Of a DNA stretch of 64,000 bases, positions 9,636 through 38,977 are shown piece after piece (within the stretch, counting starts at the first letter, position 1; every line of letters starts with the position of its first letter). Where the stretch lies: contig JACRKZ010000031.1 of NCBI GenBank assembly GCA_016235455.1, positions 32,001 through 96,000 on the forward strand. The letters run 5' to 3'. The notes under the pieces are model-generated. The model worked only from the letters and a program-made list of their open reading frames with translations, was not told the DNA's origin and made no database searches. A program made the position numbers and the translations under genes. The stretch comes from Armatimonadota bacterium. Lineage in GTDB: Bacteria; Armatimonadota; UBA10988.

Positions 9636-9754
9636 GACTGCAGCCGCCGAACCCCATACTCCAGCGGGAGTTCGGGGACGGATGGCAATTACCGCAGTCC
9701 CGACCCTTTCTCGTTCGTCGTGTGTCTAACGGTCGGCGGGTGTGCCGGCCTCGG

Positions 9755-9784
9755 CGCCGGAGTCCGGATTTCCGGACACCGGCG
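9755..9784. repeat. GC-rich hairpin / inverted repeat between rpsA and the surface-protein locus
   Basis: CGCCGG-A-GTCCGGA-TT-TCCGGAC-A-CCGGCG with no U-tract. Confidence 0.4.
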
Positions 9785-10022
9785 TCGACCCGTTGAGGGG
9801 CTCGGTGTGAGCTCCTGAGGGAAATTGGCGTTTACGGGGCTCGTGAGTCGGGAATATGCACAATCAGTATAGGTACTCCTCGTTGAGCGCCTGGGGCCTC
9901 TCCGTGGCCCGCGACCGGTCTGCTCCCCCCTGGGCCGTCGCTGCCGCGGGTGTGCATTGTCTTGAGACCAAGACGACCCGACTCGAACACGCCCACAGCC
10001 GGACGGACAAGGGAGATCGGCC

Positions 10023-13000
10023 ATGCGTGTGAGGCGATCGAGCCTGGGTTGGAGCGTTCTGCTCCTGGTGTCGCTGGTGACGGCCGTCGCCGCGAAGACG
10101 TCGCATGAGTTCGTGGGGGCCCAGGGCCCGGCGTTCATGCGGGCGCAACTGCGCCAGGCCGGCTCTCGGCAGGTGGCGCCCACGGCCGACCACAACATCA
10201 CCCAGAGTGCCTCGGACAACATCGATCCCGTGTGGTCGCCCGACGGTACCCGTGTGGCCTTCGCCTCCAACCGCGCCGGCAGTTACGATATCTACATCGC
10301 TCGCTCGGACGGCTCGAATCCCGACACCGGCGCGCTGCTGACCCCCAAGCTGATCTCTGGCGTGGCCGGGGACGAGCGCTATCCCGCCTGGAACCCTGGT
10401 GGCCTGGACTTGGCCTACGTGCGCGGCAATGCCATCTACGTGCGCAACCTGCGCACCATGGCCGAGATCCAGCTGATCGACCAGCTCACCAACATCCAAG
10501 GCCTGACCTACAGCCCGGATGGTTCGCGCCTGGTCTTCTCCGCCCGCCTGGCCGGTGACTCCGATCTCAACCTGTACTGGGTGACCACTGACCCGCAATC
10601 CACCGACCCGGCCACCGGCAAGCCCCAGATGGTGCAGATCACCAATGCGGCGGGCAACGAAGTTCAGCCGAGCTGGTTCCCGAACTCCGACGCCGCGGAC
10701 GGGCGCCAAGTCATCTTCTCGTCGAACGCCAACGGCGACTACGACTTGTACCGCGTGACGCCGCCGACGGTCGGTGGTGCGCCGGTCGCCCTCACCGCGG
10801 CCAACCGCGTGCTGGGCAATGGCGGTGACGGTGACCAGTCGTATCCCTCTTGGGTGCGACCGGGCGGCTCTCGCGACGCCAGCTACGACCAGCCCTACTA
10901 CCTGCTGTATGCGGACAACGGCAACGGCAACTACGATCTGCGGGTCGTCGACGCCGACCTCGTGCCCGCGTCGGCGGTCGTGTACCAGGGCGCCGGCGAC
11001 CAGATTCAGCCGGTCGCATGCCCCATCCAGGACACAACCCACAATGCCTGCGTCTATTCGGGCAAGAAGACCGGCATCACCACGAACCAGCTGTTCGTGA
11101 TCGACATCTTCGACAACTCAGCGCCAATTCTGGGCGACGGCATCACCACCTCGCTGCCGTCGGTGAGCCCGCAACGCGGCTTCCCCGGCTCGACGGTCAC
11201 CATCACGGCCAAGGTCTACGACAAGGGCAGTGGCGTGGCTCCGGCGCCGATCGACTATGACGGCGACACCATCCCGGACTCTGGCGTGTGGGCCATCGTG
11301 CGCGTCGCTGACCGCCCGGTCTTCGCCAGGTGGACGACGGGCAGCACGGAAGTCCAGCCCAACCACATCAGCAACACCGTCTGGGCGCACGTTTCGAACA
11401 ACCAGATCGAGACCGACCAGGAGATTGTGGACATCCCGACCACCAGGCTGTCGGGGAACCTGACCACGGTACAGCCCAACGACCCCACCGAACTCGGGGC
11501 GGCCATCACTGGCCCGGGTGTCGCCTACCGTTTCACCACGCTGGATGCCATGTCCTTTGTGAACCGCGTCGGCCTGCCGTTGCGGGACGACGGTACGCAA
11601 GGCGACGCGGTGGCTGGGGATGGCATCTACACCGGCACCTGGCTGACCCCGGCGGAATCCCACGACTACTATGTGGACGTCGTGCCGGTCGATACCCGGG
11701 GCAACGCACCGGTGGACCCCGATCTGGGCATGGACGGTCTCGGCCGCACGAACCCGCTCGAAACCACATACCGCTACCCCGATGGTATTGCGACCTGCAT
11801 GGGGCCGTGGGCCATCGGCTATGACCACGTGGCGGGTTTCACCACTCGGCAACTGGACATCACGCGCAAGATTCTGCTCGTCAGCGACTACGGCTGCGGC
11901 CAGAAGTTCCAGGCCGCGGACTTCGCCACGACCGCCTCCGCGGCGCTGAGCCGCTACTGGCCGGTCGCGCTGCCAACAGAACACTATTGGTTCACCGATG
12001 ATGACGTGGCCGGCGCTGAGTCGATGACCGCCGCGCCGGTGATCACCTTCGGCAGCGGGGTCTCGGGCGTGCAGCGCACCATCGGCCCGAACCCCACGGT
12101 TTCAGCCGGCACACAAGTGCCAGACGGCCCCTGGTCGTGCGGCCCCTTCGCCCAGCTCAACGGCGGCGGCCAGCCCTTCGGCGGGCCGCAGGACGTTGAC
12201 CAGGTCGCCATCTGGCGGGTGCTCTGCCGCGGCCCGCTGGACGCTGGCACGCTCAACGCCTATACGCCAGCTCCGCTGGCCGCCGTTGAGGGCAGTCCCG
12301 TCCCGGCTCAGAACGGCGACCATATGGTCGTCTTCTCCAGCCCCTACACCGGCGATGTCTACGCGCAGCCAGGGACGCTCCTCGACGCCTCGACGCAAGC
12401 GCTGCTGCGTTCCTTCGTGGCCGCCGGCGGGCGCTTGGTCGTCAGCGGCATGGACATCGCCTGGGCGCTGACCAAGAACGGCACGCAGGCGAGTCCGTTC
12501 CTGCAGGATGTGCTCAAGGCGACGTTCATCTCGGATGCCACCCCGGGCGCGGTCAACTCACCGATCAGCGGCTATGACTCGGGCCGCACCCGCATGACAC
12601 CCCCGGATGCGCAGGGCGGCGTCGAGCCGCAGCTCTTCCAGTTCGGCGGCAGTCCGGTCGCTGCATCCATGACCGGGCGTCCGATGAACGCGGACGGGGG
12701 CGTCCCCGGCAACCTGGCCCTGCTGCGGATCAACGGCGGCGGCGACACACAGGGCGGCTGGCCTTTCTCGGGCGACGGCTGCCCGAACGCGTTCTTCATT
12801 GACAATGTCAGCCCCACTGGTGGCGGCCTGTCCACCTTTGACTACGCCGGCGGAGACGGCTCGGCCGCGGTCCGTTACATCGACCCGACAACCGGCTCGC
12901 GCGTGGTCTACTTCGCCTTCGGCCTGGAGTCGCTGCGGGCGGACTTCATCCTCCACGACCACAACCCCGCCCCCTACGTCGTCCATGGCATGGAGCATCG

Positions 13001-15452
13001 GGTCCGCCTGATGACCAACCTGAGCGACTACCTGCGCACGGGTGGCCTGCGCGGCAAGGTGGTCGACACGGACTCCTTGACCCCCATGGCCGGCATCACG
13101 GTCATCGCGCGCCGCGGCACGGGCACCAACGGCACCATCATGGGCCGGACCACCACGCTGTCCGACGGCACGTACCTCCTGGAAGGCCTGACGGTCGGCG
13201 ACTACGCGCTGTTCGTCCAGTCGGCGGAGTACACCGCCGACCACCGTCCGGTGCAGCGCGTCTACGGCGGCCAGGTCAGCCAGAACTCCGACCTGACCAT
13301 GCGCCTGCTGCGCTTTGAAACCTCCGCGCTGTACGGCACGGTGACCGGCCCGACCGGCACACCGGTGTCCGGCGCCACGGTCATTGCGTCGCTGGCCACG
13401 GCCGGCGCCAACCCGATGCAGGTGAGCACCACCACCGACACGGTCGGACAATACTCGTTGTCCGTGCCCAGCGGCACCTACACGCTGACCGCCAGCGCGG
13501 CGGGCTTCGCCTCGGCCACGCGCACCGACATCATCGTCGTGGCCGGCGCCGACCAGAAGCAGGACCTGCAACTCACGGCTTCACCGGGCGTGCTCACGGG
13601 CACGATCACCGGTAACGGCGCCGGTGTGGGCGGCGCCACCGTGGTGGCGACCAGCGGGGGCGTGACGGTCGGCAGCACCACCACCGCGGCGGATGGCACC
13701 TACACCATGTCCATCGCCGCCGGCACCTATGATCTGGTGGTCACGGCGCCCGGCTATCAGCAGGGCCGTAAGGCGGCCGTTGTGGTCACCAGCAGCGCCA
13801 CGACCACGGCCAATCTGGCCCTGACGGCGGTGGCGCCCGGCAGCATTGCCGGCCTGATCACCGTCCAGGGCTCCAACCAGGCGGTGGGCGGTGTCACGGT
13901 GTCCCTGCTGGCGGGCGGCGCGACGGTGCGCAGCACCACATCGGCTAGCACCACGACCACGCAGGGCGGCGTTACCTACAACTGGAAGATCGACGACGTG
14001 CCGGCCGGTCTATACGACGTGCGGGTGCAGGCGCCGGGCTACAACGCCCAGACCACCACGTCGGTGACGGTGACCAGCAACCAGTTGACGTCGGGCATCG
14101 ACTTCACGCTGCAGCCGCTGCACGTGTTCATCTCGTCGCTGTCCATGGCCTCGACGCCGTTCGACTACAGCACCTCGGCGCCCGACGCGCAGACGCTGAT
14201 CGACGACGACAACAATGCGGCCACCCCGCTCAAGATGGCGGCCTACAACACCGCCACGGCGGCCTACGCGTACTATCCGAACGCACCGGGCAGGACCTTC
14301 ACGCTGGGTCGCGGCTACTTCCTGAAGCTGGCCAACAACGCGGCACTGACCCGCGAAGGCGTCCGCGCGGCGACCACGGGCAGCGGCTACGATGTGCCTC
14401 TGCTCAACGGCTGGAACCTGATCGGCGCCGTCTACGAGTTCCCGGTTGATCTGTTCTCCTGCCAGGTGATCCTGGAGGTGAACGGTGCCGGCTCGACGGT
14501 CTACTCCTTCCAGGAGGCCGTGGCTCGCGGTCTGGTCGGTGGATCCATGTACACGCTGAACTTCGGTGTGTACCAGCAGGTCTACCGCTTCGACCCGTAT
14601 ACGGGCTACTGGCTGCGCGGCTACGTGCCGTCGGCGGCCACGACGCTCAAGCTGCGCGTCCCGCCGACGCCGCTGGGTGGTTCGTCCAACCGCGGCCGGA
14701 GCGCCGCGACGCCCACCGACTGGAAGGCGAGCATCGTCGCCAAGACCACGGACGGCGTGGCCTCACAGGCCACCTTCGGCGTGGGCGGCAACTCGGCTAC
14801 GGTGTACGACGGCGCGGACCGAGCCCAACCGCCGGCGCCGCCCGTGGCTGCTCAGTGGCTGGAGCTGGGCTTCCCGCACGCGGACTGGGGTCGCTACTCG
14901 GGGTCGTACCAGAGCGACATCCGTAGCGCGAGCCGCAGCCTGCGCTGGGAACTGGAGCTCAAGGGCGCCAAGCCGGGCCAGATGGTCAGCCTGAGCTGGC
15001 CGGAGCTGGGCGCCAACATACCGGGCAACCTGAGGGTCATCCTGGAGGACCTGCAGACGGGTGTGCGGCGCTCGCTGCGCCACACCAGCGGCTACACGGT
15101 CCGCGCCGACGGTAGTGCGCGGCGGCTGGCCATCATCGTCGAGCCGGCGGACAACCGCCCGGCGGTGACATCGCTGGCCTACACGGCGAGCCGCGCCGTG
15201 GGCGGCCAGGTGCACTTTACGCTCACCGCGGACCTGACTACCAACGTGGTGGTGCGTGGTCTGAACGGTGCGCTGGTCAAGACGCTGCTGCGCGATGAGG
15301 TGCTGACCGCCGGGCCCCAAGTGGTGGTCTGGGACGGCACCGACGACAGCGGCCGCGTGGCCCCCGACGGCACGTATCGACTCGAAGTGGTCGCCGTGGG
15401 CGACACGGGTGAGCAGGTACGGGCCACGACAACGGTTCGACAGCAGCGCTGA
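10023..15452 (+). CDS. 1809-aa secreted multidomain surface protein: PD40/TolB-like beta-propeller, choice-of-anchor X-like motif, carboxypeptidase-regulatory-like beta-sandwich repeats, C-terminal FlgD-Ig (CTD-like) module
   Basis: Signal peptide; DPVWSPDGTRVAFASNR repeats; LRDDGTQGDAVAGDGIYTG; four GxVxG...TxxDGxY...GxYxLxxxAPGY repeats; terminal WDGTDDSGRVAPDGTY. GGGAGA RBS. Confidence 0.8.
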   Translation: MRVRRSSLGWSVLLLVSLVTAVAAKTSHEFVGAQGPAFMRAQLRQAGSRQVAPTADHNITQSASDNIDPVWSPDGTRVAFASNRAGSYDIYIARSDGSNPDTGALLTPKLISGVAGDERYPAWNPGGLDLAYVRGNAIYVRNLRTMAEIQLIDQLTNIQGLTYSPDGSRLVFSARLAGDSDLNLYWVTTDPQSTDPATGKPQMVQITNAAGNEVQPSWFPNSDAADGRQVIFSSNANGDYDLYRVTPPTVGGAPVALTAANRVLGNGGDGDQSYPSWVRPGGSRDASYDQPYYLLYADNGNGNYDLRVVDADLVPASAVVYQGAGDQIQPVACPIQDTTHNACVYSGKKTGITTNQLFVIDIFDNSAPILGDGITTSLPSVSPQRGFPGSTVTITAKVYDKGSGVAPAPIDYDGDTIPDSGVWAIVRVADRPVFARWTTGSTEVQPNHISNTVWAHVSNNQIETDQEIVDIPTTRLSGNLTTVQPNDPTELGAAITGPGVAYRFTTLDAMSFVNRVGLPLRDDGTQGDAVAGDGIYTGTWLTPAESHDYYVDVVPVDTRGNAPVDPDLGMDGLGRTNPLETTYRYPDGIATCMGPWAIGYDHVAGFTTRQLDITRKILLVSDYGCGQKFQAADFATTASAALSRYWPVALPTEHYWFTDDDVAGAESMTAAPVITFGSGVSGVQRTIGPNPTVSAGTQVPDGPWSCGPFAQLNGGGQPFGGPQDVDQVAIWRVLCRGPLDAGTLNAYTPAPLAAVEGSPVPAQNGDHMVVFSSPYTGDVYAQPGTLLDASTQALLRSFVAAGGRLVVSGMDIAWALTKNGTQASPFLQDVLKATFISDATPGAVNSPISGYDSGRTRMTPPDAQGGVEPQLFQFGGSPVAASMTGRPMNADGGVPGNLALLRINGGGDTQGGWPFSGDGCPNAFFIDNVSPTGGGLSTFDYAGGDGSAAVRYIDPTTGSRVVYFAFGLESLRADFILHDHNPAPYVVHGMEHRVRLMTNLSDYLRTGGLRGKVVDTDSLTPMAGITVIARRGTGTNGTIMGRTTTLSDGTYLLEGLTVGDYALFVQSAEYTADHRPVQRVYGGQVSQNSDLTMRLLRFETSALYGTVTGPTGTPVSGATVIASLATAGANPMQVSTTTDTVGQYSLSVPSGTYTLTASAAGFASATRTDIIVVAGADQKQDLQLTASPGVLTGTITGNGAGVGGATVVATSGGVTVGSTTTAADGTYTMSIAAGTYDLVVTAPGYQQGRKAAVVVTSSATTTANLALTAVAPGSIAGLITVQGSNQAVGGVTVSLLAGGATVRSTTSASTTTTQGGVTYNWKIDDVPAGLYDVRVQAPGYNAQTTTSVTVTSNQLTSGIDFTLQPLHVFISSLSMASTPFDYSTSAPDAQTLIDDDNNAATPLKMAAYNTATAAYAYYPNAPGRTFTLGRGYFLKLANNAALTREGVRAATTGSGYDVPLLNGWNLIGAVYEFPVDLFSCQVILEVNGAGSTVYSFQEAVARGLVGGSMYTLNFGVYQQVYRFDPYTGYWLRGYVPSAATTLKLRVPPTPLGGSSNRGRSAATPTDWKASIVAKTTDGVASQATFGVGGNSATVYDGADRAQPPAPPVAAQWLELGFPHADWGRYSGSYQSDIRSASRSLRWELELKGAKPGQMVSLSWPELGANIPGNLRVILEDLQTGVRRSLRHTSGYTVRADGSARRLAIIVEPADNRPAVTSLAYTASRAVGGQVHFTLTADLTTNVVVRGLNGALVKTLLRDEVLTAGPQVVVWDGTDDSGRVAPDGTYRLEVVAVGDTGEQVRATTTVRQQR

Positions 15453-15542
15453 CGCGCTGCCTGAAGGAAGCGAGCCGGGCCTGCCGAAATGGCTGGCGCG
15501 GGTCGCGGCGGAAGACTGAGCGAAGCTGCGAGGGAGTCTGAC

Positions 15543-17603
15543 ATGAGACTGGTCAAGCGATTGCGGCGGCATCCGCTGACTCGCCCACTGGCGTGGGCGG
15601 TGCAGCTTGCGCTGCTGGCAAGCACCGGCGTGCTGGCGCCGCCGGCGGCGGCACAGGATATCGAGGCGAAGCGCGCGGTAGTGCTGGACTTCGGCAACCT
15701 GGCCACGGCCTCGCCGTTGGCTGGCGACGAGGCGGCCGCAGCCTTGAGCTTGGCTCTGGTGCAGCGTCGCTACGAAGTCACGCCGCGCAGTGAGGTGCAA
15801 ACGCGCCTCAAGGCGATTGGCGTGCGCGCGCCGTTCGAGCCTGACGAGATCAAGCTCATCAAGAACGACCTCGACATTCGCGACCTGTACTCCGGCAGCG
15901 TGATCAGCGTGGACGAGAAGATCGGCGCCAAGTCCTCGGTCGAAGTGCTGCTGCGCGTCGAAGTCTACGACGGCGACACCGGCGACATGGTCAACGGTGG
16001 CTACGGCAAGGGCTTCGAGGTGCTGAACAGCGCCAACATCGCCGACCGTGAAGCTGGTTTGGCCAGCGCCATCGAGCGCGCCGTCGCGCAGGCCTTGACC
16101 CGCATCGATGCCCGCACCCTGATCCACGCCGCGGTCATGTCCTACGCCCCGCCGAACCGCGTGCTGATCAACAAGGGTCGCAAGCAAGGCGTGCTGGAAG
16201 GCATGGAGTTCAACGTCTTCCGCACCAAGGCCGATCCCGAAAACCCGAACCGCTCCCTCACGGTGAAGGTCGGCCGCGTCCGGGTGCATGAGGCGTCGAA
16301 CGACGATGCCACGGCCTCGGTCATCGAGATGACCCAGGGCATCAATACGCACGACGAGTTGCGCGAGGTCTTCCGCCTGCCGTCCATCTCCGCCAGTCAG
16401 GCGCAGTCAGGCAACCTGCCTGACCTGGGTCGGGCTCCGGCGCGCGGTGGCGCGGGCAACGGTGCGTGGCTAGCGCCCGTGGCTGGCGTCGTGGCCGGCA
16501 TCGGCCTGCTCGGCCTGCTAGTCGTGTTGGCCGGCACTTCGACCAGTGACTCGCCGTCGGCGCAGGCCACCGGGGCTTACCTCCGCCAGGCCGCGCCGGG
16601 CCAGAACCCGTCCGTGGAGGTGGCCTGGGGCGATCGCAACTACGCGCCGCCCAAGCGCTTCATTGGCGGCTACCTGCTGTACCGTGGCATCTCGCAGTCG
16701 TTCGCGGCGCTGACCGGCGACGCGGTGGGAGCGGTGCCTGGCGCCAACCAGCGCAAGTGGGCGGACGACCCGACCTGGGTGGACGTGACCACCACGATTC
16801 CGCTGCGCTACGAGCGCATCACCGCCACAGACGTGGAAGTGGTTGAGACGACGCTGGATGTGCGCATCGTGCACCAATCGCCGCAGCCGGGCAAGACCTA
16901 CTACTACAAGGTCCGGCGCCTCGGTCCGCCGATGGCGGCGACGGCACCGACCGTGTTCGCGCGCACCGCGACGGGTGGCAACCTGTCGTCACGGCTGAAC
17001 AGCCGCTCGGCGCAGATGCGCCAGGCCTCCGCCGGTCGCGTGCTGCGCAGTGGTGGCAACGTGCACATCTCGCGCGTTGGCCTGCCCATGATCACCCATC
17101 GCCAGGTGACCAGCATCGATCCGGGCGCGAACTACGACGCGACGCTCGACCCCACCGTCGACAATGACATCGTCATCGACACCGACATGGGTCTGTCCGA
17201 CGCGACGGTGGCCATGGGCCCGGTGACCTACATGGTGCCGCCGGACCTGTTGGCGCCGTCGAACAACAACATGGCCCAGCGCGTGGACGACATCGGCTTC
17301 TCGTGGCAGGGCGTTCTGGGCGCCACGCAGTACGTCGTGCAGATCGCCACGGATGCCGACTTCTCGGCCTTGGCGTTCTCCAGCGCGGCGATCGCGACGA
17401 CCTCCACCGGGCAGTTGTCGTTCCGCTACGACAGCACGGCGGCGGGCTACCGCGCGCTGGCGGCGAACACACAGTACTTCTGGCGAGTAGGCGCGAAGTC
17501 CACCTTCGGCGGTCAGCGGGCGCCCGAGCCCAACGGCTTCGTCTTCAGCCAGGTCTATACGTTCCAGACCGCGGACCAGCCGCCCAGCAACCCGCGCCGC
17601 TGA
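15543..17603 (+). CDS. secreted protein with CsgG/TolB-N-like alpha/beta domain, FlgT-C-like domain, internal hydrophobic helix and Fn3-like domains
   Basis: Signal peptide ending AAA|Q; AVVLDFGN...YEVTPRSEV; VLINKGRKQGVLEGMEFNVFR...KVGRVRV (FlgT C-terminal-like); helix AWLAPVAGVVAGIGLLGLLVVLAG; GYLLYRG, YYYKVR, FSWQGV..YVVQIATD..F, YFWRVGA. AGGGAG RBS. Confidence 0.65.
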   Translation: MRLVKRLRRHPLTRPLAWAVQLALLASTGVLAPPAAAQDIEAKRAVVLDFGNLATASPLAGDEAAAALSLALVQRRYEVTPRSEVQTRLKAIGVRAPFEPDEIKLIKNDLDIRDLYSGSVISVDEKIGAKSSVEVLLRVEVYDGDTGDMVNGGYGKGFEVLNSANIADREAGLASAIERAVAQALTRIDARTLIHAAVMSYAPPNRVLINKGRKQGVLEGMEFNVFRTKADPENPNRSLTVKVGRVRVHEASNDDATASVIEMTQGINTHDELREVFRLPSISASQAQSGNLPDLGRAPARGGAGNGAWLAPVAGVVAGIGLLGLLVVLAGTSTSDSPSAQATGAYLRQAAPGQNPSVEVAWGDRNYAPPKRFIGGYLLYRGISQSFAALTGDAVGAVPGANQRKWADDPTWVDVTTTIPLRYERITATDVEVVETTLDVRIVHQSPQPGKTYYYKVRRLGPPMAATAPTVFARTATGGNLSSRLNSRSAQMRQASAGRVLRSGGNVHISRVGLPMITHRQVTSIDPGANYDATLDPTVDNDIVIDTDMGLSDATVAMGPVTYMVPPDLLAPSNNNMAQRVDDIGFSWQGVLGATQYVVQIATDADFSALAFSSAAIATTSTGQLSFRYDSTAAGYRALAANTQYFWRVGAKSTFGGQRAPEPNGFVFSQVYTFQTADQPPSNPRR

Positions 17604-17635
17604 GGACTGTCTAGGGCTTGGAGAGGAGCGCAGGC

Positions 17636-20600
17636 ATGCGGAAGGCACTGTTCTGGCTGATGGCGGCGACCGTAATGGTCGTCGCCCGGCCAGGGGCCGC
17701 CCAAACGACGGCCGATTGGACCGTGCTGGTCTACCTGAACGGTGACTCCACTGTCCGCTACGAGGACGCATCGATCCGCGTGTTCAACGCGCTGGAGCAG
17801 ATCGGCTCGACGCAGGCGGTGAACGTCGTCGTGCAGTGGGACCGCGGCCCTGGCGACGATGTGCTGACCGCGGCGAACCCCGCCGACGCCACGCAGGCCT
17901 GGGCCACCACGCGCCGGTACTTGGTGGTGGCGGACCCGGCCCAGACCGGCCTGACGCCGGACACGCTGACCGCCGCCGCGACGCGTATCGCCTCACCGGC
18001 CCTGGTCGACCTGGGCGAAGTGGACATGGGCCAGCAGGCGAGCCTGGTGGACTTCTACACCTGGACTGCCGCGCGCTTCCCCGCGCGTCACTATGCGCTG
18101 ATCCTGAGCGGTCCCGGCACCGGCTGGCAGCCGCGCAGCCAGCACCGTGGCATGCTGTTCGACACGACGACCGTGTCGACCGGCCCCACCGACCCGTCGG
18201 CCTTCCTGACCAATGCCGAGTTGACCGGCGCGCTGACCGCGATCAAGTCCCAGCGCAGCGGCCTGAACCTGGACGCCTTGCTGTGTGACACTGGCGGCAG
18301 CGCGACGGTCGAAGTCGCCACTCAGGCTACTGGGCTGGTGGACAGCTACCTGGGCGAGTTCCTCGATCGCAATGGCAACGGCGGCCTGAACTACGACACG
18401 CTGGTGTCCTCCCTGAACACGGCGCTGCCGTTGACGGCGGCCACGGTGCAAACCTGGCTCGGCAGTGTAGCCACGACCTACCTGGGCTCCTATGGCACCG
18501 GCACGGCGCGGCTGGGTGGCGCCCAAAGCGTGACTGCGGGCGTGTACCGCATGGGCAACCTGCCCAGCTTGGTAACCGCCTGCGATGACCTGGCCAAGGC
18601 GCTGGATGCCGACCTGCTGACCACGGCACCGGGATTGTTCCGGGTGCTCAGTACGGTCCAGCGTGGTCGCCCTGCTGACTTCAGCGGAGACTACATTGAC
18701 CTCAAGCACTTCGCTGAGCTGTGCCAGACTGAGTTCGCGGCCACCCAGACCATCGTTGACGCCGCGACGGCGCTGATCTCCGCGGTCACCGCGGTCCAGG
18801 CGGGCGACGTGACCGCCGCTTCCGCCGCCACCGACATCGATGTGTCGAATTTCAACGGTGTGGCCGTGTACTTCCCGGGAGAGCTGGCGGCCTACGACAG
18901 CAACTACCCGACGGGCTGCGACTTCGGGCAGACAGAATGGCCGACCCTGATCCAGGGGCTCTACACGCTCTACTCGGATCGCAACCCGCCGGTGATCACC
19001 CTGATCACCCCGACCAACGGCACCACCATCCTTGAGAATCCGCCGACGATTCAGGTGTCCATCGTGGACCCCGACGCCATCGGCGGTGTCAACGCGGACT
19101 CGGTCTCGTTGACCTTCGACGGGGTCGTCGTGCCCAAGGCCAACTACAGCTTCAGCAGCGAGACGGGCGTTCTGACCTACACGCCGGCCAACGCGCTCGG
19201 CGCCACCAGCCACACGTTCATCGTGGGGGCCAGTGACCTGAGCGGTAATGCCGCGACGCCCACGACAGGCAACTTCCGCATCTCCGTGGCGACCTTGTCG
19301 ACGGGGATCCAGACGTTCTCGTTGCCTCGCCTGCTGACCGCCGCTCAGAACGATCCGGGCCTGGTCTTCGGCGCCAGCAACTTCGCCATGGCACGCTGGG
19401 TGCCTGGGCTCAGCGGGTCGGACAAGTACCGGCTGTACCCCGATAGCTATGCTTCGTTCCTGCCGCCCGACTGCAGCACCAGCGTGTCGAACCCCGTCGT
19501 CACGCGGGCGCCGGCGGGGCTGGGCTACTGGGTCAGGGTGAAGCAGTCCAGGCCGTTGCAGACGTTGCCCGGCACGCCGGTCACGCTCTCGGAGTACGGG
19601 ATTCGGCTGCTCACCGACGGCAGTTCGCCGAACTGGAACATGGTGGCCAACCCCTATGACACGCCGGCCATCTCCTTGGCCAGCGCTTTCATCCAGTTGG
19701 TCGACGGACGGCGCCTGACGTTCCGTCAGGCTATCGACCAGCGGTACACACCGGGTGTGCTGTTCAGCTACGTGCCCAATGAGAGCAACGCCAACGCTCC
19801 GGGGCGCTACGACTTCAGTGACGCGGGCGCCGGCCAACTGATCCGGCTTCAGGCGCACTGGCTCAAGGTCAACACGGCCTGCTCCTTGGTGGTGCAATCC
19901 GGTCTTTCGTCCCGCGCGGCCGTACCGAGCGCTTCGGCCCGGGCCCTGCCGCGCGACGGTTGGAGCCTGGCGCTGTGGGCCACGGCTGACAGCAAGGCCA
20001 ACGCCTATTCGGACGGCCGAGCCTATGAAGCCAAGGACCGTCTGGTGCTGGGCCAGTCCAGCGATGCGCAGAATGGCTACGACCATGCCTTGGACGTGGC
20101 CGGGCCGCCGGCCATGCCGGGCGGTGTCGCGCTGCGTGCCGTCCACGGCGACTGGGGCCTGGAGAGCGGGCGCTACGTGCGGGACTACCGCGCCGCCGGC
20201 ATGAGTACGGAGTGGGACGTCGAGGTCGCGGCGCCGGCCGGCGAAGTGAGCCTGACGTGGCCCGACCTGCGGGCGGTGCCGGGCGACATCGACCTCGTGC
20301 TGACCGACCTGACCAACGGTCAGTCGCGAGCGCTGCGCACAACCGCCAGCTACGGCTTCACGCACAGCGGTGGCCCGCGGGCGTTCCGCGTGACGGCGCA
20401 ACGGCGCAACGGCGCCGGCCTGTTGGTGACCAACGTCACCACGCAGTCCGGTCGCGGCGGCGACTCCGTGGATATCGGCTACACGCTCTCTCGGGCGGCG
20501 AGTGTGCACGTCCAGGTGACGAGCCTGAGTGGCCGTTCGCTGCGCTCGCTCGGCCCGGTTGACTCCGCCACGGGTCGCGGTCGCTTGGCCTGGGACGGGT

Positions 20601-20713
20601 GCGATGCCAACGGTCGACCGGTGCCCAACGGCATCTACGTGTTGCAGGTGGTCGCGACGGGCGCGGACGGGTCCTTGGCTCGAGAGCTTCGCACGGTTCG
20701 CGTGATGCGGTAG
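17636..20713 (+). CDS. secreted clostripain (C11)-like protein, probably inactive, with Ig-like domain and C-terminal FlgD-Ig (CTD-like) module
   Basis: WTVLVYLNGD, GSTQAVNVVVQWDR, GEVDMG..SLVDF..W....FPARHYALIL; catalytic His and Cys positions replaced; terminal WDGCDANGRPVPNGIY. GAGGAG RBS. Confidence 0.75.
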   Translation: MRKALFWLMAATVMVVARPGAAQTTADWTVLVYLNGDSTVRYEDASIRVFNALEQIGSTQAVNVVVQWDRGPGDDVLTAANPADATQAWATTRRYLVVADPAQTGLTPDTLTAAATRIASPALVDLGEVDMGQQASLVDFYTWTAARFPARHYALILSGPGTGWQPRSQHRGMLFDTTTVSTGPTDPSAFLTNAELTGALTAIKSQRSGLNLDALLCDTGGSATVEVATQATGLVDSYLGEFLDRNGNGGLNYDTLVSSLNTALPLTAATVQTWLGSVATTYLGSYGTGTARLGGAQSVTAGVYRMGNLPSLVTACDDLAKALDADLLTTAPGLFRVLSTVQRGRPADFSGDYIDLKHFAELCQTEFAATQTIVDAATALISAVTAVQAGDVTAASAATDIDVSNFNGVAVYFPGELAAYDSNYPTGCDFGQTEWPTLIQGLYTLYSDRNPPVITLITPTNGTTILENPPTIQVSIVDPDAIGGVNADSVSLTFDGVVVPKANYSFSSETGVLTYTPANALGATSHTFIVGASDLSGNAATPTTGNFRISVATLSTGIQTFSLPRLLTAAQNDPGLVFGASNFAMARWVPGLSGSDKYRLYPDSYASFLPPDCSTSVSNPVVTRAPAGLGYWVRVKQSRPLQTLPGTPVTLSEYGIRLLTDGSSPNWNMVANPYDTPAISLASAFIQLVDGRRLTFRQAIDQRYTPGVLFSYVPNESNANAPGRYDFSDAGAGQLIRLQAHWLKVNTACSLVVQSGLSSRAAVPSASARALPRDGWSLALWATADSKANAYSDGRAYEAKDRLVLGQSSDAQNGYDHALDVAGPPAMPGGVALRAVHGDWGLESGRYVRDYRAAGMSTEWDVEVAAPAGEVSLTWPDLRAVPGDIDLVLTDLTNGQSRALRTTASYGFTHSGGPRAFRVTAQRRNGAGLLVTNVTTQSGRGGDSVDIGYTLSRAASVHVQVTSLSGRSLRSLGPVDSATGRGRLAWDGCDANGRPVPNGIYVLQVVATGADGSLARELRTVRVMR

Positions 20714-20723
20714 GATGGTAAGC

Positions 20724-23612
20724 ATGAAACGGCCCAAGCACACAATCCTGGCCCTGTTCGCCTGCCTGGCTGTGGCTGGCTCGGTCTCGGCGCAGACCTA
20801 CCAGACCATCAGCGGGACAGCGACGAACTCGCAGCCCGGGACGTTGTTCTCCACCGTGCGCAACAACTACCTCCAGGTGGACGTGCGCGTGCCGGGCATC
20901 GTGCCCGTGGTCAATCCCGGAGGCACGACGGGTCCCACGCTCGTTGGCTACAGCAACTACCGTGGTGGCCGGGCCTGGATCAGCACCGTGCAAGGCGATC
21001 CGTTCACCGCCAACGACAACGGTGTGCGCATCGCCGGGCCGACCGCCTACTCGACATGGTGCGGGGTGCAGTTGCAGGATCTGCCCACGCCGGCCGATGA
21101 CACGCCGGCGATTGAGTACCATGAGTGCGAGACCAGCTACGAGCCGGTGAACAATCCGAACCAGGACATCTTCTCGCAGTACCCGACGGCGAGCAACGAT
21201 GAGGTCCGGTTTGCCTGGCAGATCCGCAAGGACCTGCCCTCGCTGACAACCATCCACGCCAACCCAAACGTGGCCACCAACGGTGGTCTGGCGGGCGTGA
21301 ACTCCGCTGTGCAGTGCCTCGTGTCGCAGTCCTATCGGCTGGTCGGCGACAAGGTTCGCGTCGAGATGCTGGTCCAGAACGTCAGCAATGCCAGCGTGCG
21401 CATCGGCGGGCACATCTACATCAACCCGACCTTTGGCAGCGGCGTGCGCAACGGTGATCGGTTCCACTTCCAAGGCGTCAAGCAGACCATCGACCACGAA
21501 ATTACATTCCCCTCGACCAATGCCGCGGACGACCCGTCGTTGCGTCGCATCCCCACCTTCTACCGTACCTTCGACGATGAAGCCGCCCCGTCGGTCATTC
21601 TGGGTGGCCTGTTCGACGGCGCCGACATCCGGACGACGGCGTTGAGCGCCGGCCCGCCCACGAGCGCCATGCTGGTCGACCAGAACCTGATCACAGGCAA
21701 CTGGTTCGCCTACACGCCGGCGTCGGGCAGCCTGATCGGCGCCAACTTTGGCATCATGCTGCGCTGGGCTCCGACCTTGGTCGCCCCCAACTCGGGACGT
21801 CGGTTCATCACCTACTACGGCCTGGGCGGCACGGATGCCGACTACGACCAGCCGTACATCTTGTCCGCCGAGGCGCCGTTCAGCCTGTCGCTGGCCAATG
21901 GCGACGACCCCAACACCACCTTGGTGGAGACCAGCGACAATGTGTACCGGGCGCCGAACCCGTTCACCGTTCGCGCCTCCGTCTTCAACACCTCGGATCG
22001 GGCCATCAGCAATGTGGCCGTGGCGCTGTCGCTGCCGGCCGGCATGAGCCTGGCCAGCGCCGGAGACACGCTCAGCAAGTCCATTGGGCTCGTTCCCGCG
22101 AGGTCCGAGCAGGTGGTGAGTTGGCAGGTCAAGACGACATCGACCCTCGAGCCGGGCGTGCGGACAGTGTCCGTGTCGTCTTCCGGCACCAGCCTGACAT
22201 CGAAGATCGTGGACCGCGAGATCGGCATTCCGGCGCTGCCGCAACTGCTCTTCCCGAACGTCGCCAGGCGACTGGACATGATCTCGGTGCCCTACGATTT
22301 TGCCAACCGCGACATCCAGCACGTGCTCAACTCGTTGGGCACGGTCGGAGTGACCGGCGGCGGCAACGCGGCGGTAGCTCGCTACAATGCCGCGGCGCGC
22401 TCGTACGGGTACTTCCCGGATCCCTATATCACCAGTGTGGTCCCGGGCGAAGGCTTCTGGCTCTTCAATGGCGCTCTGACAGACCTGCGGCTGCCCACCG
22501 ACAAGGCCCAGTTGCCGCTGGCGCAGTCGGTGTCGGTGGCGCTGAGTACCGGCTGGAACCAGATCGGCTGCCCATTCACGGTGCCGGCACGGCTGTATGA
22601 CTGCGAAGTGGTGGGCAGCGACGGCATCGTCCGCAGCTTCCTCGATGCGGTCGGCGCGGGCCAGGTCAAGCCTGTCGTCTACGAGTACCAGCCCAACGAC
22701 CTGAACCCCACGGCCCAGGGCAGTTATCTGTTCGCCGGCGATGACGCCACCATGCTCAACCCGTGGCGCGGGTACTGGCTGCGTTCGCTGACGGACGTGA
22801 ACCTGGTCTTCAACGCCAACTCCCTGGTCGGACCGTTCCGCTCCAGCGGTCGCAGCCCATTGGCGCTGCGCGGCGGTTGGGAGTGCGCGCTGTCCGCTGA
22901 CTCGCCCAACACGGGCAAGCGCCCGGTGCGCCTGGGCTGCGATAGCACCTCGCTGGATGGCTACGACAGCCGCGACGTTGAGGCGCCGCCCACGCTGCGC
23001 TCCGAGGGCGACCTGCGCCTCTCGGTGCTGCGTGAGGACTGGGGTCGCGACGCCGGCCGCTACATGCGTGATATCCAGTCGGGCACTCGAGCGCAGACGC
23101 GATGGCGCCTGCTGGCCGAGTGTGACCGGGCCAACGAGGACGTGACGCTGCGGTGGAACCTGCGGACGGTGCCGGCCGATGTGCAGCTCACTTTGGTCGA
23201 CCTGGAGACGGGGGCCCAGCGGCACTTGCGCACGACCTCGGCCTTCAGCTACAACACAGGTGCGACGCCGCGGCCGCGGCTGTTCGAGGTGATTGCCACC
23301 AAGGGCGGCGGCCAGGGGCTCAGCATCCCATTCATGCAGGTGGCTGGCACGCGCGGTCGCGCGGTGACCGTGGCTTTCGGCCTGACCTCGGCCGCGACGG
23401 TCGACGTTGTGATCGAAAGCCCGACCGGGCGACGGGTGAAGCTGGTTGCTGCATCAATGGCTGCCACGGAAGGTCAAAACAGTGTATCCTGGGACGGCCT
23501 TGACGAAGGGGGCCGCCCGGTGCCTGCTGGGATGTACCGTTGCCGGGTGCTGGTTTCGACGCCGGATGGCCAACGGGCCATCGCTGAGCGTCTGGTGCGG
23601 ATTGGCCGGTAA
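20724..23612 (+). CDS. secreted beta-rich protein with NEW3-like Ig domain and C-terminal FlgD-Ig (CTD-like) module
   Basis: Signal peptide ending VSA|Q; FTVRASVFNT...NVAVALSLPAGMSL...VSWQV; terminal WDGLDEGGRPVPAGMY. Alternative start at 20715. Confidence 0.7.
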   Translation: MKRPKHTILALFACLAVAGSVSAQTYQTISGTATNSQPGTLFSTVRNNYLQVDVRVPGIVPVVNPGGTTGPTLVGYSNYRGGRAWISTVQGDPFTANDNGVRIAGPTAYSTWCGVQLQDLPTPADDTPAIEYHECETSYEPVNNPNQDIFSQYPTASNDEVRFAWQIRKDLPSLTTIHANPNVATNGGLAGVNSAVQCLVSQSYRLVGDKVRVEMLVQNVSNASVRIGGHIYINPTFGSGVRNGDRFHFQGVKQTIDHEITFPSTNAADDPSLRRIPTFYRTFDDEAAPSVILGGLFDGADIRTTALSAGPPTSAMLVDQNLITGNWFAYTPASGSLIGANFGIMLRWAPTLVAPNSGRRFITYYGLGGTDADYDQPYILSAEAPFSLSLANGDDPNTTLVETSDNVYRAPNPFTVRASVFNTSDRAISNVAVALSLPAGMSLASAGDTLSKSIGLVPARSEQVVSWQVKTTSTLEPGVRTVSVSSSGTSLTSKIVDREIGIPALPQLLFPNVARRLDMISVPYDFANRDIQHVLNSLGTVGVTGGGNAAVARYNAAARSYGYFPDPYITSVVPGEGFWLFNGALTDLRLPTDKAQLPLAQSVSVALSTGWNQIGCPFTVPARLYDCEVVGSDGIVRSFLDAVGAGQVKPVVYEYQPNDLNPTAQGSYLFAGDDATMLNPWRGYWLRSLTDVNLVFNANSLVGPFRSSGRSPLALRGGWECALSADSPNTGKRPVRLGCDSTSLDGYDSRDVEAPPTLRSEGDLRLSVLREDWGRDAGRYMRDIQSGTRAQTRWRLLAECDRANEDVTLRWNLRTVPADVQLTLVDLETGAQRHLRTTSAFSYNTGATPRPRLFEVIATKGGGQGLSIPFMQVAGTRGRAVTVAFGLTSAATVDVVIESPTGRRVKLVAASMAATEGQNSVSWDGLDEGGRPVPAGMYRCRVLVSTPDGQRAIAERLVRIGR

Positions 23613-26858: not shown

Positions 26859-26880
26859 CCGCGGTGGCTAGCGACCAGAG

Positions 26881-26922
26881 CGCCGGGCCTCGGTTCACCG
26901 AGTCCCGGCGTTCGTGGTTTGT
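26881..26922 (+). terminator. probable intrinsic terminator after the five-gene surface-protein run
   Basis: CGCCGGGCCTCGG-TTCA-CCGAGTCCCGGCG followed by TTCGTGGTTTGT. A TACAAT -10-like box follows at 26973-26978. Confidence 0.5.
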
Positions 26923-27058
26923 GTCGCCGAGTCGAGGGCGCACACCCTCTGGCGCGGAGCGCGGCGGGAAGGTACAATTCGGTGGGCGGCCAAGGTCGCT
27001 CATGCTGCCTGGCCCACCTGATGATGGTGCCGCTGGGCAGGGGTGGAGAGGCGGCTTG

Positions 27059-38175: not shown

Positions 38176-38322
38176 ACTCCGCACATGGGAAGCTGGTGAG
38201 ACTCCAGCACGGCCCCGCCACCGTAACCGGGGACGGCCGTCGCCCAGCGTGCCACTGACTCAGTCGAGTTGGGAAGGCCGCGGCGGCCGATCGATCCGGG
38301 AGTCGGGATACCAAGCGGCCCA
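38176..38322 (+). ncRNA. cobalamin (B12) riboswitch
   Basis: GGGAAGCTGGTGAGACTCCAGCACGGCCCCGCCACCGTAA, GCCACTG...GGGAAGG and B12-box-like GAGTCGGGATACC, directly upstream of cobU. Confidence 0.88.
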
Positions 38323-38947: not shown

Positions 38948-38977
38948 GTGGCGGGCCTCGTGTCGAAAGGACCAACC

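Follow-up and report, generated by a model that had tools for sequence, protein, structure and literature searches.

The window analysed here, a stretch of 64,000 nucleotides of an Armatimonadota contig, carries a run of forward-strand genes, P0001 to P0006 (Table 1). Three adjacent exported proteins of this run, P0001, P0003 and P0004, have a common tail, which makes up their last 447, 472 and 453 residues, respectively.

Table 1. Genes of the run and the cassette domains (D1, D2 and D3 are blocks 1, 2 and 3) in window coordinates
Feature	Coordinates	Strand	Length	Description
P0001	10023..15452	+	1809 aa	Signal peptide, PD40/TolB-like propeller, choice-of-anchor X, four CarboxypepD_reg domains, then module (residues 1363-1809)
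P0001 D1	14133..14666	+		Three-way alignment; bounds approximate
P0001 D2	14706..15149	+		Alignment and AlphaFold2 model of P0004; bounds approximate
P0001 D3	15162..15449	+		Ends VRQQR; PF13860 E 4.6e-8 (whole protein), 7.8e-9 (module alone)
P0002	15489..17603	+	704 aa	Cluster partner without module
P0003	17636..20713	+	1025 aa	Signal peptide, clostripain-like (C11) domain, Ig-like domain, module (residues 554-1025)
P0003 D1	19307..19909	+		Alignment; bounds approximate
P0003 D2	19946..20410	+		Alignment; bounds approximate
P0003 D3	20426..20710	+		Ends VRVMR; PF13860 E 7e-11
P0004	20724..23612	+	962 aa	Signal peptide, family-less passenger (weak NPCBM_assoc match), module (residues 510-962)
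P0004 D1	22272..22811	+		AlphaFold2; all-beta, internal duplication
P0004 D2	22863..23315	+		AlphaFold2; beta domain, about ten strands
P0004 D3	23328..23609	+		Seven-strand Ig-like, FlgD_ig, ends VRIGR
P0005	23619..26858	+	1079 aa	P0002-like N-terminus, then fn3 and Big_1/invasin-type Ig domains
P0006	27176..29056	+		Outer-membrane-type protein, N-terminal Big_1 domain, ends in Phe

A common tail on three unrelated passengers

In pairwise BLASTP comparisons, the tails of P0001 and P0003 aligned with an E value of 5e-26 (28% identity, 415 columns), those of P0001 and P0004 with 1e-32 (29%, 468 columns) and those of P0003 and P0004 with 3e-41 (32%, 370 columns), and the three-way alignment contained 72 invariant columns. 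Since all remaining segments of the three proteins gave E values of at least 0.28, their N-terminal parts are unrelated. An earlier note, made from the sequence, had proposed exactly this arrangement of a shared tripartite C-terminal module on unrelated N-terminal passengers. It was also right to place the start of the module of P0003 at 19295, which is in frame, whereas its starts at 14110 and 22250 lie one base off frame and should read 14109 (P0001) and 22251 (P0004). A profile of the module, searched against every ORF of 80 aa or longer in the six frames of the window (402 in total), recovered only these three copies.

Three separable beta domains make up the tail, D1 (~180 aa), D2 (~150 aa) and D3 (~95 aa). 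An AlphaFold2 model of the whole P0004 module (pLDDT 88.1, pTM 0.72) placed them at module residues 8-187, 210-351 and 362-451; the bounds in P0001 are approximate, as they were transferred from these by alignment. No relationship among the three blocks was detected by hhalign. Signal peptides were present on all three carriers, according to sequence reading and a crude hydrophobicity check. The carriers are Sec-exported envelope proteins, and their tail is a C-terminal cassette of three beta domains that fold separately.

As for the passengers, the choice-of-anchor X domain of P0001 was located at residues 518-553 in an NCBIfam scan. A match of P0001 to the "Kustd1514 S-layer" model lies in the CarboxypepD_reg repeats, outside the module, and reached 68.7 bits against a cut-off of 1400. 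The passenger of P0003 matched peptidase C11 (PF03415) with 32.6 bits against a cut-off of 25.8. P0003 reads S-G-P-G where two relatives have D-H (P0058 D-H-G, P0052 D-H-W), and no conserved Cys column was seen among the six relatives whose alignment covered this part. Judged at the His-Gly and Cys positions that we take to be catalytic in C11 (clostripain), the motif of P0003 looks degenerate in sequence.

The end domain D3 and the unnamed domains D1 and D2

Block 3 had been described as a FlgD-type Ig domain with the endings listed in Table 1, and this description is correct: the FlgD_ig family (PF13860) matched D3 of P0001, P0003 and P0004 with 33.4, 42.4 and 34.1 bits, respectively, all above the gathering cut-off of 27. 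Seven strands were predicted by AlphaFold2 in D3 of P0004 (module residues 362-451 of 453), and a PDB profile search matched D3 to solved FlgD chains (3c12, E 6.5e-7). However, the carriers have neither the N-terminal part of FlgD nor a flagellar context, and the family name describes the fold only.

[quoted passage not shown] The three window modules matched only FlgD_ig, with no PF18962 (Por_Secre_tail) match at E <= 10, and the three whole proteins had no TIGR04183 match at E <= 1. In T9SS phyla, the last domain of their relatives scores as PF18962; this family was matched C-terminally in 5 of the 31 scanned locus proteins (L016, L039, L068, L013 and L048) and in P0161, P0163 and P0179. Comparison of 53 Armatimonadota D3 domains with 18 from T9SS phyla by hhalign gave a probability of 98.9% (E 3.3e-17, 67 columns), and the tblastn alignments extended through D3 in loci from T9SS phyla. 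As judged from these alignments, the D3 of Armatimonadota is homologous to the type A CTDs of its relatives in T9SS phyla. Like those, it stands at the extreme C-terminus of signal-peptide proteins, and it may share with them the basic residues of the last strand (motif E); its size (~80-95 aa) and seven-strand Ig-like sandwich also agree with the type A CTD as described in passages of PMC10202324 and PMC12618676. Unlike those, it ends in Arg, often as R-P-x-x-x-x-R, in place of K-x-x-x-x-K, and its host phylum is not known to have a T9SS, as judged from the titles and abstracts consulted.

The terminal Arg is a feature of the module carriers. Of 53 locus proteins from Armatimonadota whose tail has the size of D3, 50 had it as their last residue, often with a second Arg 5-6 residues before it; it also ended 112 of the best 150 cluster representatives matched by a D1+D2 profile, and Lys or Arg ended 16 of 18 D3-tailed proteins from T9SS phyla. 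In type A CTDs, according to passages of the review PMC10202324, secretion requires the lysines within the last 13 residues. The earlier statement that all five genes of the run end in Arg holds in the window (P0001-P0005, with P0006 ending differently), but the residue is conserved only for module carriers; it ended 1 of 14 complete P0002-like orthologues.

D1 and D2 are conserved domains that are unnamed in the domain libraries searched, as had been suggested. The three modules gave no Pfam match in D1 or D2 at E <= 10, the whole proteins gave no NCBIfam match there at E <= 1, and a PDB profile search returned nothing significant, the only rows touching block 1 being at chance level (E 0.12-0.47). 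The motifs noted previously were reproduced by the invariant columns of the three-way alignment, with S.P, Y...P, G.G, WN and WL in block 1, and YD..D...PP, DWG...G.Y..D, W and L.DL..G..R.LR.T in block 2. The conserved positions of D1 and D2 are rich in aromatic residues, which is also compatible with glycan binding. The duplication proposed for block 1 was recovered in part, as its first and second halves aligned in hhalign with a probability of 89.9% and an E value of 1.7e-6, but over only 41 columns. When D1 of P0004 was modelled alone, AlphaFold2 gave a pLDDT of 93.0 and a pTM of 0.88, and this model had no match to PDB folds at E <= 1e-3; its weak matches were jelly-roll, lectin-like and phage receptor-binding domains.

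Ig-like domains preceding a CTD are reportedly essential for cargo stability during secretion. D1-D2 resembles the gingipain-type pre-CTD domain as a conserved beta domain directly before a CTD, but differs in its length of ~340 aa, its own motifs and its lack of a match to any Ig-family model. The choice-of-anchor domains of NCBIfam are defined by adjoining alternative sorting signals. The hallmark of D1-D2 is likewise its neighbourhood to a C-terminal sorting domain, and P0001 itself contains a choice-of-anchor domain; in contrast to that domain, D1 and D2 are matched by no NCBIfam model.

Spread of the cassette and its place in an envelope gene cluster

The cassette is widespread in environmental bacteria. 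The D1+D2 profile matched 7103 cluster representatives at E <= 1e-3, 3563 at <= 1e-10 and 496 at <= 1e-30, and carriers occur both in Armatimonadota and in T9SS phyla. In 144 of the best 150 representatives, D2 is followed by 80-119 residues and then the protein end. Among locus ORFs with a match reaching the end of D2 and a complete 3' end, a D3-sized tail was present in 53 of 56 from Armatimonadota and in 18 of 21 from T9SS phyla. Thus, D1+D2 stands nearly always directly before a C-terminal domain of the sorting type, on diverse passengers. These include enzymes (S8, C11 and M6 peptidases, GH25, PhoD, alkaline phosphatase) as well as VWA, Kelch, LRR, beta-helix, propeller and Ig-array proteins.

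The many hydrolases among the carriers would fit a role of D1, D2 or both as undescribed carbohydrate- or polymer-binding domains serving a catalytic passenger, with the proximity to the CTD being incidental, as would the all-beta character of D1 and D2, their many invariant Trp, Tyr and Gly positions and the jelly-roll, lectin-like and phage receptor-binding folds weakly matched by D1. We consider such a role quite unlikely, as no carbohydrate-binding Pfam family was matched, the cassette is also found on passengers with unrelated or no catalysis (LRR, Kelch, VWA, Ig arrays, propellers), its position directly before the end domain is fixed, and three distinct proteins of a single conserved envelope cluster carry it.

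Partial forms of the cassette were also found. Thirteen locus ORFs have no D3 in any frame, 8 of them ending after block 1 and 5 after block 2, and in the Abditibacteriota locus L028 the cluster proteins end directly after D1; judging from these sequences, D1 works without D3. Blocks 1/2 accompany block 3 wherever it is C-terminal in the 28 Armatimonadota loci (54 of 54 ORFs), in a sample that is biased because the loci were retrieved with blocks 1+2. The absence of D3 without D1/D2 from this biased sample (0 of 54) also fits a cassette that acts as a whole. In loci from T9SS phyla, 11 ORFs have a D3-type end without D1/D2, block 1 of many relatives lacks about 50 profile positions (~112-160), and some relatives have an extra copy of D2.

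According to the earlier note, the module is one signal, much larger than a classical CTD; in such a case the machinery would recognise D1, D2 and D3 jointly, and ~450 residues would be needed in place of ~90. The constant company of D3 and blocks 1/2 in the biased Armatimonadota sample leans towards this, but the claim is upheld only in part because forms without D3, or without D2 and D3, exist. The fixed order D1-D2-D3 and the constant length of the tail after D2 are consistent with a single signal, as is the pTM of the module model, at which the domains may pack as a unit. Passages of PMC10202324 point the same way in reporting that type B CTDs need a region of >200 residues for secretion. 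The same passages describe the type A CTD as a short signal, in which the last 22 residues of HBP35 are enough for secretion and can drive that of GFP; this speaks against a joint signal, as do the 13 ORFs that stop after D1 or D2, the 11 ORFs with a D3-type end alone, and the shortened D1 and additional D2 in T9SS phyla. We therefore regard a single oversized signal as rather improbable.

The partner genes of the carriers are also conserved. P0002 consists of a signal-like N-terminus, a FlgT_C-like domain, a central hydrophobic helix and an fn3-like end; in other loci of Armatimonadota its orthologues are flanked by module genes, and those of its homologues that have a name are all called "hypothetical". 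A counterpart of P0005 was found, among the fetched loci, only in L001, the closest relative. For P0006, the longest ORF starts at 26864 and the database gene call has 626 aa; F or Y was the C-terminal residue in 5 of 8 complete orthologues. Language-model neighbours of P0006 (scores 0.95-0.97) were clusters with some LptD_N, OstA_2, LptC or DUF3769 members. These features make an LptD/OstA-like identity a lead for P0006, which profile searches did not confirm: P0006 had no LptD_N or LptD match in Pfam or NCBIfam, and the PDB profile search found only an intimin-type N-terminal domain and no solved LptD.

The order module protein, P0002-like protein, module protein, module protein recurs in 11 loci (L001, L004, L006, L008, L011, L015, L018, L019, L038, L053 and L056), and a P0006-like gene comes next in L011, L018, L019, L038 and L056. 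The cluster comprises a propeller/CarboxypepD_reg protein, then a P0002-like, a protease-type and a P0004-like protein, and an outer-membrane protein. A maximum-likelihood tree was built from 43 modules (39 Armatimonadota rows and 4 from KSB1, Deferribacteres, Eisenbacteria and Marinimicrobia). In it, the 13 first-position modules formed one side of a branch with support 86/89, recovered in 100% of 200 bootstrap trees, and a quick tree separated the 39 Armatimonadota modules from the 4 others with an SH-aLRT of 100. The three carriers are old paralogues, each with a fixed place in a conserved envelope cluster. In T9SS phyla, the cassette is found mostly on single unrelated enzymes or adhesin-like proteins, without P0002-like or P0006-like neighbours.

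If D1-D2 domains bound each other, either between copies or among the three paralogues, and in this way assembled an S-layer-like coat or a fixed hetero-oligomer at the outer membrane, it would fit that three paralogous carriers stay together, each at its own place, in different orders of Armatimonadota, and that the L028 cluster proteins keep D1 despite the loss of D2 and D3. The T9SS cargo of Tannerella forsythia includes its S-layer proteins, which also counts for such a lattice. It seems unlikely to us, however, given that the cassettes of T9SS phyla sit mostly on solitary proteins and that neither fold nor sequence kinship to known S-layer or pilin domains was found.

Gene clusters of a partly comparable kind are described in passages of PMC12618676 for Flavobacterium johnsoniae, where operons encode a PorE-like protein together with a cargo bearing a type B CTD and the SprF-like outer-membrane shuttle dedicated to it, the products being proposed to form a static anchored complex. 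As in these operons, CTD-bearing proteins stand in the window beside an outer-membrane-type protein (P0006) and a protein with a PD40 propeller and CarboxypepD_reg domains (P0001). The differences are that the end domain is not type B, that no PorP/SprF, OmpA_C or PorE family match was obtained, and that there are three cargo-like proteins instead of one, in another phylum.

Judging by the titles and abstracts consulted, T9SS is confined to Bacteroidota or the FCB superphylum, and none of the titles and abstract openings retrieved for Armatimonadetes/Armatimonadota dealt with T9SS in this phylum. Among the 36 proteins of the 64-kb window scanned against Pfam, no T9SS genes were recognised. We think it very doubtful that Armatimonadota, outside FCB, run a CTD-dependent surface-attachment pathway of their own with this cluster as the attachment complex. 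By analogy, the protease slot (S8 or C11-like), with its own CTD, would then take the role of PorU and the propeller/CarboxypepD_reg protein that of PorZ or PorE, while the terminal outer-membrane protein would be an anchor or a lipopolysaccharide supplier. Complex and cargo would be held together by D1-D2 as docking domains, the fold of D1 would be new, and many T9SS cargo proteins of environmental FCB phyla would contain in D1-D2 a component that had been missing and has no name.

A proposed docking stalk before a putative sorting domain

We tentatively favour a division of labour, in which D3 may be a sorting or attachment domain and D1-D2 a surface docking stalk. The N-terminal signal peptide, as read from the sequence, would direct the carriers to the periplasm. 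D3, by its homology, may serve as the outer-membrane sorting or attachment domain. Domain architecture suggests that D1-D2 would be retained after maturation as a docking stalk close to the membrane, and that this stalk may tie widely differing passengers to one envelope partner. Since the paralogues have fixed places in a conserved envelope cluster, the docking partner of a stalk is probably another stalk or a further member of the cluster. Points against this reading are that D3 of the window proteins matches neither PF18962 nor TIGR04183, that the abstracts consulted confine T9SS to Bacteroidota or the FCB superphylum, and that the 36 window proteins scanned against Pfam included no recognised T9SS component. 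From the 13 D3-less ORFs it follows that either D3 is unneeded for reaching the destination or those proteins remain periplasmic.

The choice of proteins that a bacterium displays or releases is made by C-terminal sorting domains. For type IX secretion, the known signal is one domain of ~90 residues, whereas the cassette described here is much larger and conserved. Pfam and NCBIfam have missed its domains D1 and D2, although thousands of protein clusters contain them, both in Armatimonadota and in many little-studied phyla with type IX secretion. Giving these domains names and models would lead to better annotation of large surface proteins from environmental bacteria. If D1-D2 are docking domains, they would offer a handle on what retains cargo at the cell surface, as well as a candidate scaffold for surface display. 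The conserved gene cluster provides a concrete gene set for knock-outs, and if Armatimonadota export proteins via the end domain, CTD-type sorting would reach beyond the FCB superphylum.

Homology and anatomy of the shared C-terminal module

A tight run of six genes, separated by intergenic gaps of 5-36 bases, lies 3' of an S1 ribosomal-protein gene in the window, which has a G+C content of ~69%. A promoter and terminator scan of 9500-10100 returned no sites.

Features of the window (window coordinates)
Feature	Position	Strand	Length or remark
P0001	10023-15452	+	1809 aa; module carrier
P0002	15489-17603	+	704 aa
P0003	17636-20713	+	1025 aa; module carrier
P0003 clostripain-like (C11) passenger	17636-19294	+	
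P0004	20724-23612	+	962 aa; module carrier
P0005	23619-26858	+	1079 aa
P0006 (longest ORF)	26864-29056	+	730 aa; gene call on record 626 aa
Cobalamin riboswitch (Rfam RF00174)	38186-38313	+	84.2 bits
cobU, cobT and cobS homologues	~38400-40745		directly 3' of the riboswitch
GT9 heptosyltransferase, HAD-type phosphatase and cytidylyltransferase-like genes	53765-55859	-	adjoining one another

In accordance with the earlier note, C-terminal stretches of 447, 472 and 453 residues in P0001, P0003 and P0004, respectively, were found to be homologous (BLASTP E = 5e-26, 1e-32 and 3e-41 for the pairs; 28-32% identity over 370-468 columns), and the N-terminal parts were indeed different, showing no match to one another outside the module at E < 0.28. 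The motifs read previously were recovered in a three-way alignment containing 72 invariant columns; two of the start coordinates assigned to the module required correction, being one base out of frame. A profile search against 402 six-frame ORFs detected exactly three copies in the window. We regard the module as a real, well-delimited feature.

An AlphaFold2 model of the P0004 module, based on 29 aligned sequences (mean pLDDT 88.1, pTM 0.72), comprised three all-beta domains, namely D1 (block 1, residues 8-187), D2 (block 2, 210-351) and D3 (block 3, 362-451), the last of which had seven strands. Comparison by hhalign indicated that D1, D2 and D3 are mutually unrelated. The proposal that block 1 is duplicated was partly supported, since hhalign matched the two halves of D1 (89.9% probability, E = 1.7e-6) over only 41 columns.

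The sole Pfam match in the modules was FlgD_ig (PF13860), which in every case lay within the final ~80 residues; D1 and D2 matched no Pfam family at E ≤ 10 and no NCBIfam family at E ≤ 1. In a sequence profile search of the PDB, only block 3 gave significant matches, to FlgD chains (best E = 6.5e-7), together with a weak one to the end domain of PorU (E = 0.46), and block 1 gave only a few rows at chance level (E = 0.12-0.47). When D1 was folded alone (pLDDT 93.0, pTM 0.88), it matched no PDB fold at E ≤ 1e-3, the best being the phage SPP1 Dit protein (E = 5.6e-3, TM 0.25), and no viral model at the same threshold. The best viral match, an 'uncultured marine phage' protein annotated as a putative hemin binding protein (E = 1.1e-3, TM 0.59), was dropped as a functional lead, since we read it as belonging to the family itself, its contig having been misassigned. 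The PDB fold matches of the whole module, the best of which was the Vpr protease fibril (8jmw_A, E = 8.2e-6), were generic multi-Ig/fn3 proteins with TM-scores on the query of 0.21 or less, and were rejected as not informative. A language-model look-up of D1 returned only unnamed 'hypothetical' clusters.

The end domain and type IX sorting domains

In relatives from phyla that use type IX secretion (T9SS), the end domain scored with PF18962, the model of the T9SS type A sorting domain, and frequently with FlgD_ig as well. Of 31 scanned locus proteins, 5 showed the PF18962 match (from L016, L039, L068, L013 and L048), as did the relatives' proteins P0161, P0163 and P0179. Alignments of 53 end domains from Armatimonadota and 18 from T9SS phyla matched each other with 98.9% probability (E = 3.3e-17). 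The terminal residue was Lys or Arg in 16 of the 18 carriers from T9SS phyla, typically in the form ..RKMLLxK, and Arg in 50 of the 53 carriers from Armatimonadota, typically ..RPxxxxR. The D3 copies of the window fail both the PF18962 and the TIGR04183 models. Judged from the PF18962-scoring relatives, the alignment match and the basic endings, D3 is homologous to T9SS type A sorting domains, as a divergent relative of them. According to a review, type A C-terminal sorting domains (CTDs) are seven-strand Ig-like domains, secretion requires lysines within their last 13 residues, and GFP can be exported by means of the final 22 residues of one CTD (PMC10202324). Published accounts, as far as their text was available, place T9SS in Bacteroidota or the FCB superphylum only.

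The five genes given in the earlier note as ending in Arg do so in the window, but this ending goes with D3 rather than with the gene run. As a signal common to the run it was rejected for P0002, whose orthologues have Pro-rich tails and end in Arg in 1 of 14 complete cases; P0005 offered a single orthologue for this comparison. Among the best 150 of 7103 cluster representatives matching D1 and D2, the last residue was Arg in 112, Pro in 13, Lys in 9 and another residue in 16. The 13 Pro endings (e.g., ..RPFxIxP), and three in His, may represent a lineage-specific variant of the terminal motif.

Distribution, passengers and separability of the blocks

We searched 1.84 billion cluster representatives with a profile restricted to D1 and D2 (alignment A2), which matched 7103 of them at E ≤ 1e-3, 3563 at E ≤ 1e-10 and 496 at E ≤ 1e-30. 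D1 and D2 are unnamed and widespread. In 144 of the best 150 of these 7103 representatives, the stretch following D2 was 80-119 residues long (median 95), the six exceptions having 388, 173, 164, 66, 52 and -3 residues. When passengers were grouped by similarity, using 137 of the best 150 together with the three window proteins, 10 groups resulted. The largest (52, 42 and 29 members) were the P0001-, P0004- and P0003-like families, so that the best-scoring representatives are mostly orthologues of the window genes. A scan of one genome per species yielded at least 604 pattern matches; among the matches listed, tblastn confirmed 199, and we retained 79 loci. The loci came from Armatimonadota (Chthonomonadales, Fimbriimonadales and Abditibacteriota among them), from the FCB group and associated candidate phyla (Ignavibacteria, KSB1, Marinimicrobia, Calditrichota, Eisenbacteria, WOR-3, Latescibacterota, Krumholzibacteriota and several Bacteroidota, one of these last being the cultured strain of L059), and from a few others. 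Named matches to the window's own proteins were Armatimonadetes or Fimbriimonadaceae MAGs. A contig labelled as a Methyloversatilis MAG (L040) and an Armatimonadota MAG (L042) shared the same module gene, P0006-like gene and protein ending, and the former may be misbinned.

Signal peptides were present at the start of all three window carriers, and 97 of 139 representatives were signal-peptide-like in a crude hydrophobicity test. No cytoplasmic carrier was seen in this test, as the other 42 mostly look 5'-truncated or start-miscalled. The passengers included enzymes (S8, C11-like and M6 peptidases, GH25, PhoD, alkaline phosphatase and metallophosphoesterase) as well as VWA, Kelch, LRR, FG-GAP, beta-helix, PQQ and BNR propeller, cohesin/dockerin and many Ig-array proteins. 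That D1 and D2 are substrate-binding modules accompanying such passengers appears rather improbable to us.

We found 120 locus ORFs matching the D1 and D2 profile, 97 of which reached the end of D2 with a complete 3' end. A tail of 75-150 residues followed D2 in 86 of these 97 (53/56 in Armatimonadota, 18/21 in T9SS phyla, 4/5 in other named phyla and 11/15 in the remaining records). Eight ORFs stopped right after D1 (two in L028 of Abditibacteriota, two in L050 and four in L079), and five stopped after D2 (in L024, L027, L035, L057 and L050); a six-frame search detected no D3 adjoining any of these 13. The four ORFs in L079 (4024-14444), on an 8.2-Mb metagenome-assembled chromosome, are tandem genes of ~860 aa that combine a calcineurin-like phosphoesterase with D1 alone. 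In T9SS phyla and other named phyla (37 ORFs), D1 was followed by D2 in 29, while 6 had chiefly D2 and 2 had D1 alone. The second D1 repeat (profile positions ~112-160) was absent from many of the 37, and an additional D2 was present in four. D3-type ends without D1 or D2 occurred in 11 ORFs in loci from T9SS phyla and in 0 of 54 in Armatimonadota loci, a sample biased by the fetching of loci with D1 and D2 and by their reach of only 10 kb each way. Taken together, the module is a separable three-domain C-terminal cassette on signal-peptide proteins. The earlier proposal that D1-D3 together form one oversized signal seems quite unlikely beside these shortened and rearranged forms.

A conserved gene cluster in Armatimonadota and a possible role of the cassette

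Using tblastn and blastp of the window proteins against the fetched loci, we found the order module protein, P0002-like protein, module protein, module protein in eleven loci (L001, L004, L006, L008, L011, L015, L018, L019, L038, L053 and L056), and the cluster is thus conserved in Armatimonadota. The first protein was P0001-like where its 5' part was present, the last module protein was P0004-like where detectable, and a P0006-like gene followed in L011, L018, L019, L038 and L056. The same searches detected P0002- and P0006-like neighbours in no fetched locus from T9SS phyla. The middle carrier was a subtilase in L004, L007, L011, L012 and L028; in the window, L001, L031 and L032 it was instead clostripain-like, so that this protease-type slot looks to be filled by non-orthologous replacement. 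The clostripain-like domain of P0003 has S-G-P-G where its relatives P0058 and P0052 have D-H-G and D-H-W, respectively. Since it is without the His-Gly of two relatives, and no conserved Cys column was evident in the comparison, it may be an inactive pseudo-protease. A maximum-likelihood tree was built from 43 modules, 39 of them from Armatimonadota and 4 from KSB1, Deferribacteres, Eisenbacteria and Marinimicrobia. In this tree, one branch set all 13 first-position modules apart (86/89; recovered in 100% of the 200 bootstrap replicates), and second- and third-position modules were sister groups within lineages. The position labels required 4 changes on the tree, as compared with a mean of 18.8 after shuffling, and we conclude that the paralogues are old and tied to their positions.

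P0002 and P0005 each begin with a signal-like segment and an N-terminal domain, which in P0002 is FlgT_C-like; a mid-protein hydrophobic helix and then fn3- or Ig-type domains follow. This predicted topology is hard to reconcile with that of an inner-membrane protein. Among the fetched loci, a counterpart of P0005 was present only in L001, the closest relative. Homologues of P0002 and P0006 were only unnamed or 'hypothetical' Armatimonadota proteins, and the PDB, searched with P0002, with P0006 and with the passenger of P0003, yielded only an intimin-type Ig domain, in P0006. P0006 is outer-membrane-type, with an N-terminal intimin/invasin-type Big_1 domain and a C-terminal Phe; 5 of 8 complete P0006-like ORFs end in Phe or Tyr. 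LptD_N, OstA_2, LptC or DUF3769 is present in some members of the clusters that were its language-model neighbours (scores 0.95-0.97), and these OstA/LptD-like clusters are typical of Armatimonadota, Cyanobacteriota and diderm Bacillota. This reading of P0006 was confirmed by no family model or PDB profile match. Elsewhere in the window, the adjoining heptosyltransferase, phosphatase and cytidylyltransferase-like genes look like lipopolysaccharide inner-core genes, which we take to be in keeping with a two-membrane envelope. A long ORF from 38147 overlaps the cobalamin riboswitch, and the real cobU start is therefore probably near 38411.

We tentatively prefer a hypothesis, which we regard as quite possible, that D3 would act as an outer-membrane sorting or attachment domain, and that D1 and D2 would stay on as a docking stalk tying varied passengers to a common envelope partner, which in Armatimonadota may be another member of the cluster. 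An alternative explanation, that D1 and D2 form a lattice or hetero-oligomer, we consider unlikely. The closest analogy at the operon level is provided by Flavobacterium, in which operons encode a PorE-like protein together with a type B CTD cargo and an SprF-like outer-membrane shuttle dedicated to that cargo; a static anchored complex has been proposed for them (PMC12618676). D1 and D2 were not described in the available parts of that report or of PMC11611037. In the openly accessible literature found on Armatimonadota T9SS, FlgD-like CTDs and domains upstream of the CTD, D1, D2 and the cluster were likewise undescribed. The cassette is, in our view, a new form of CTD-type sorting architecture, in which D1 and D2 represent two undescribed domain families.
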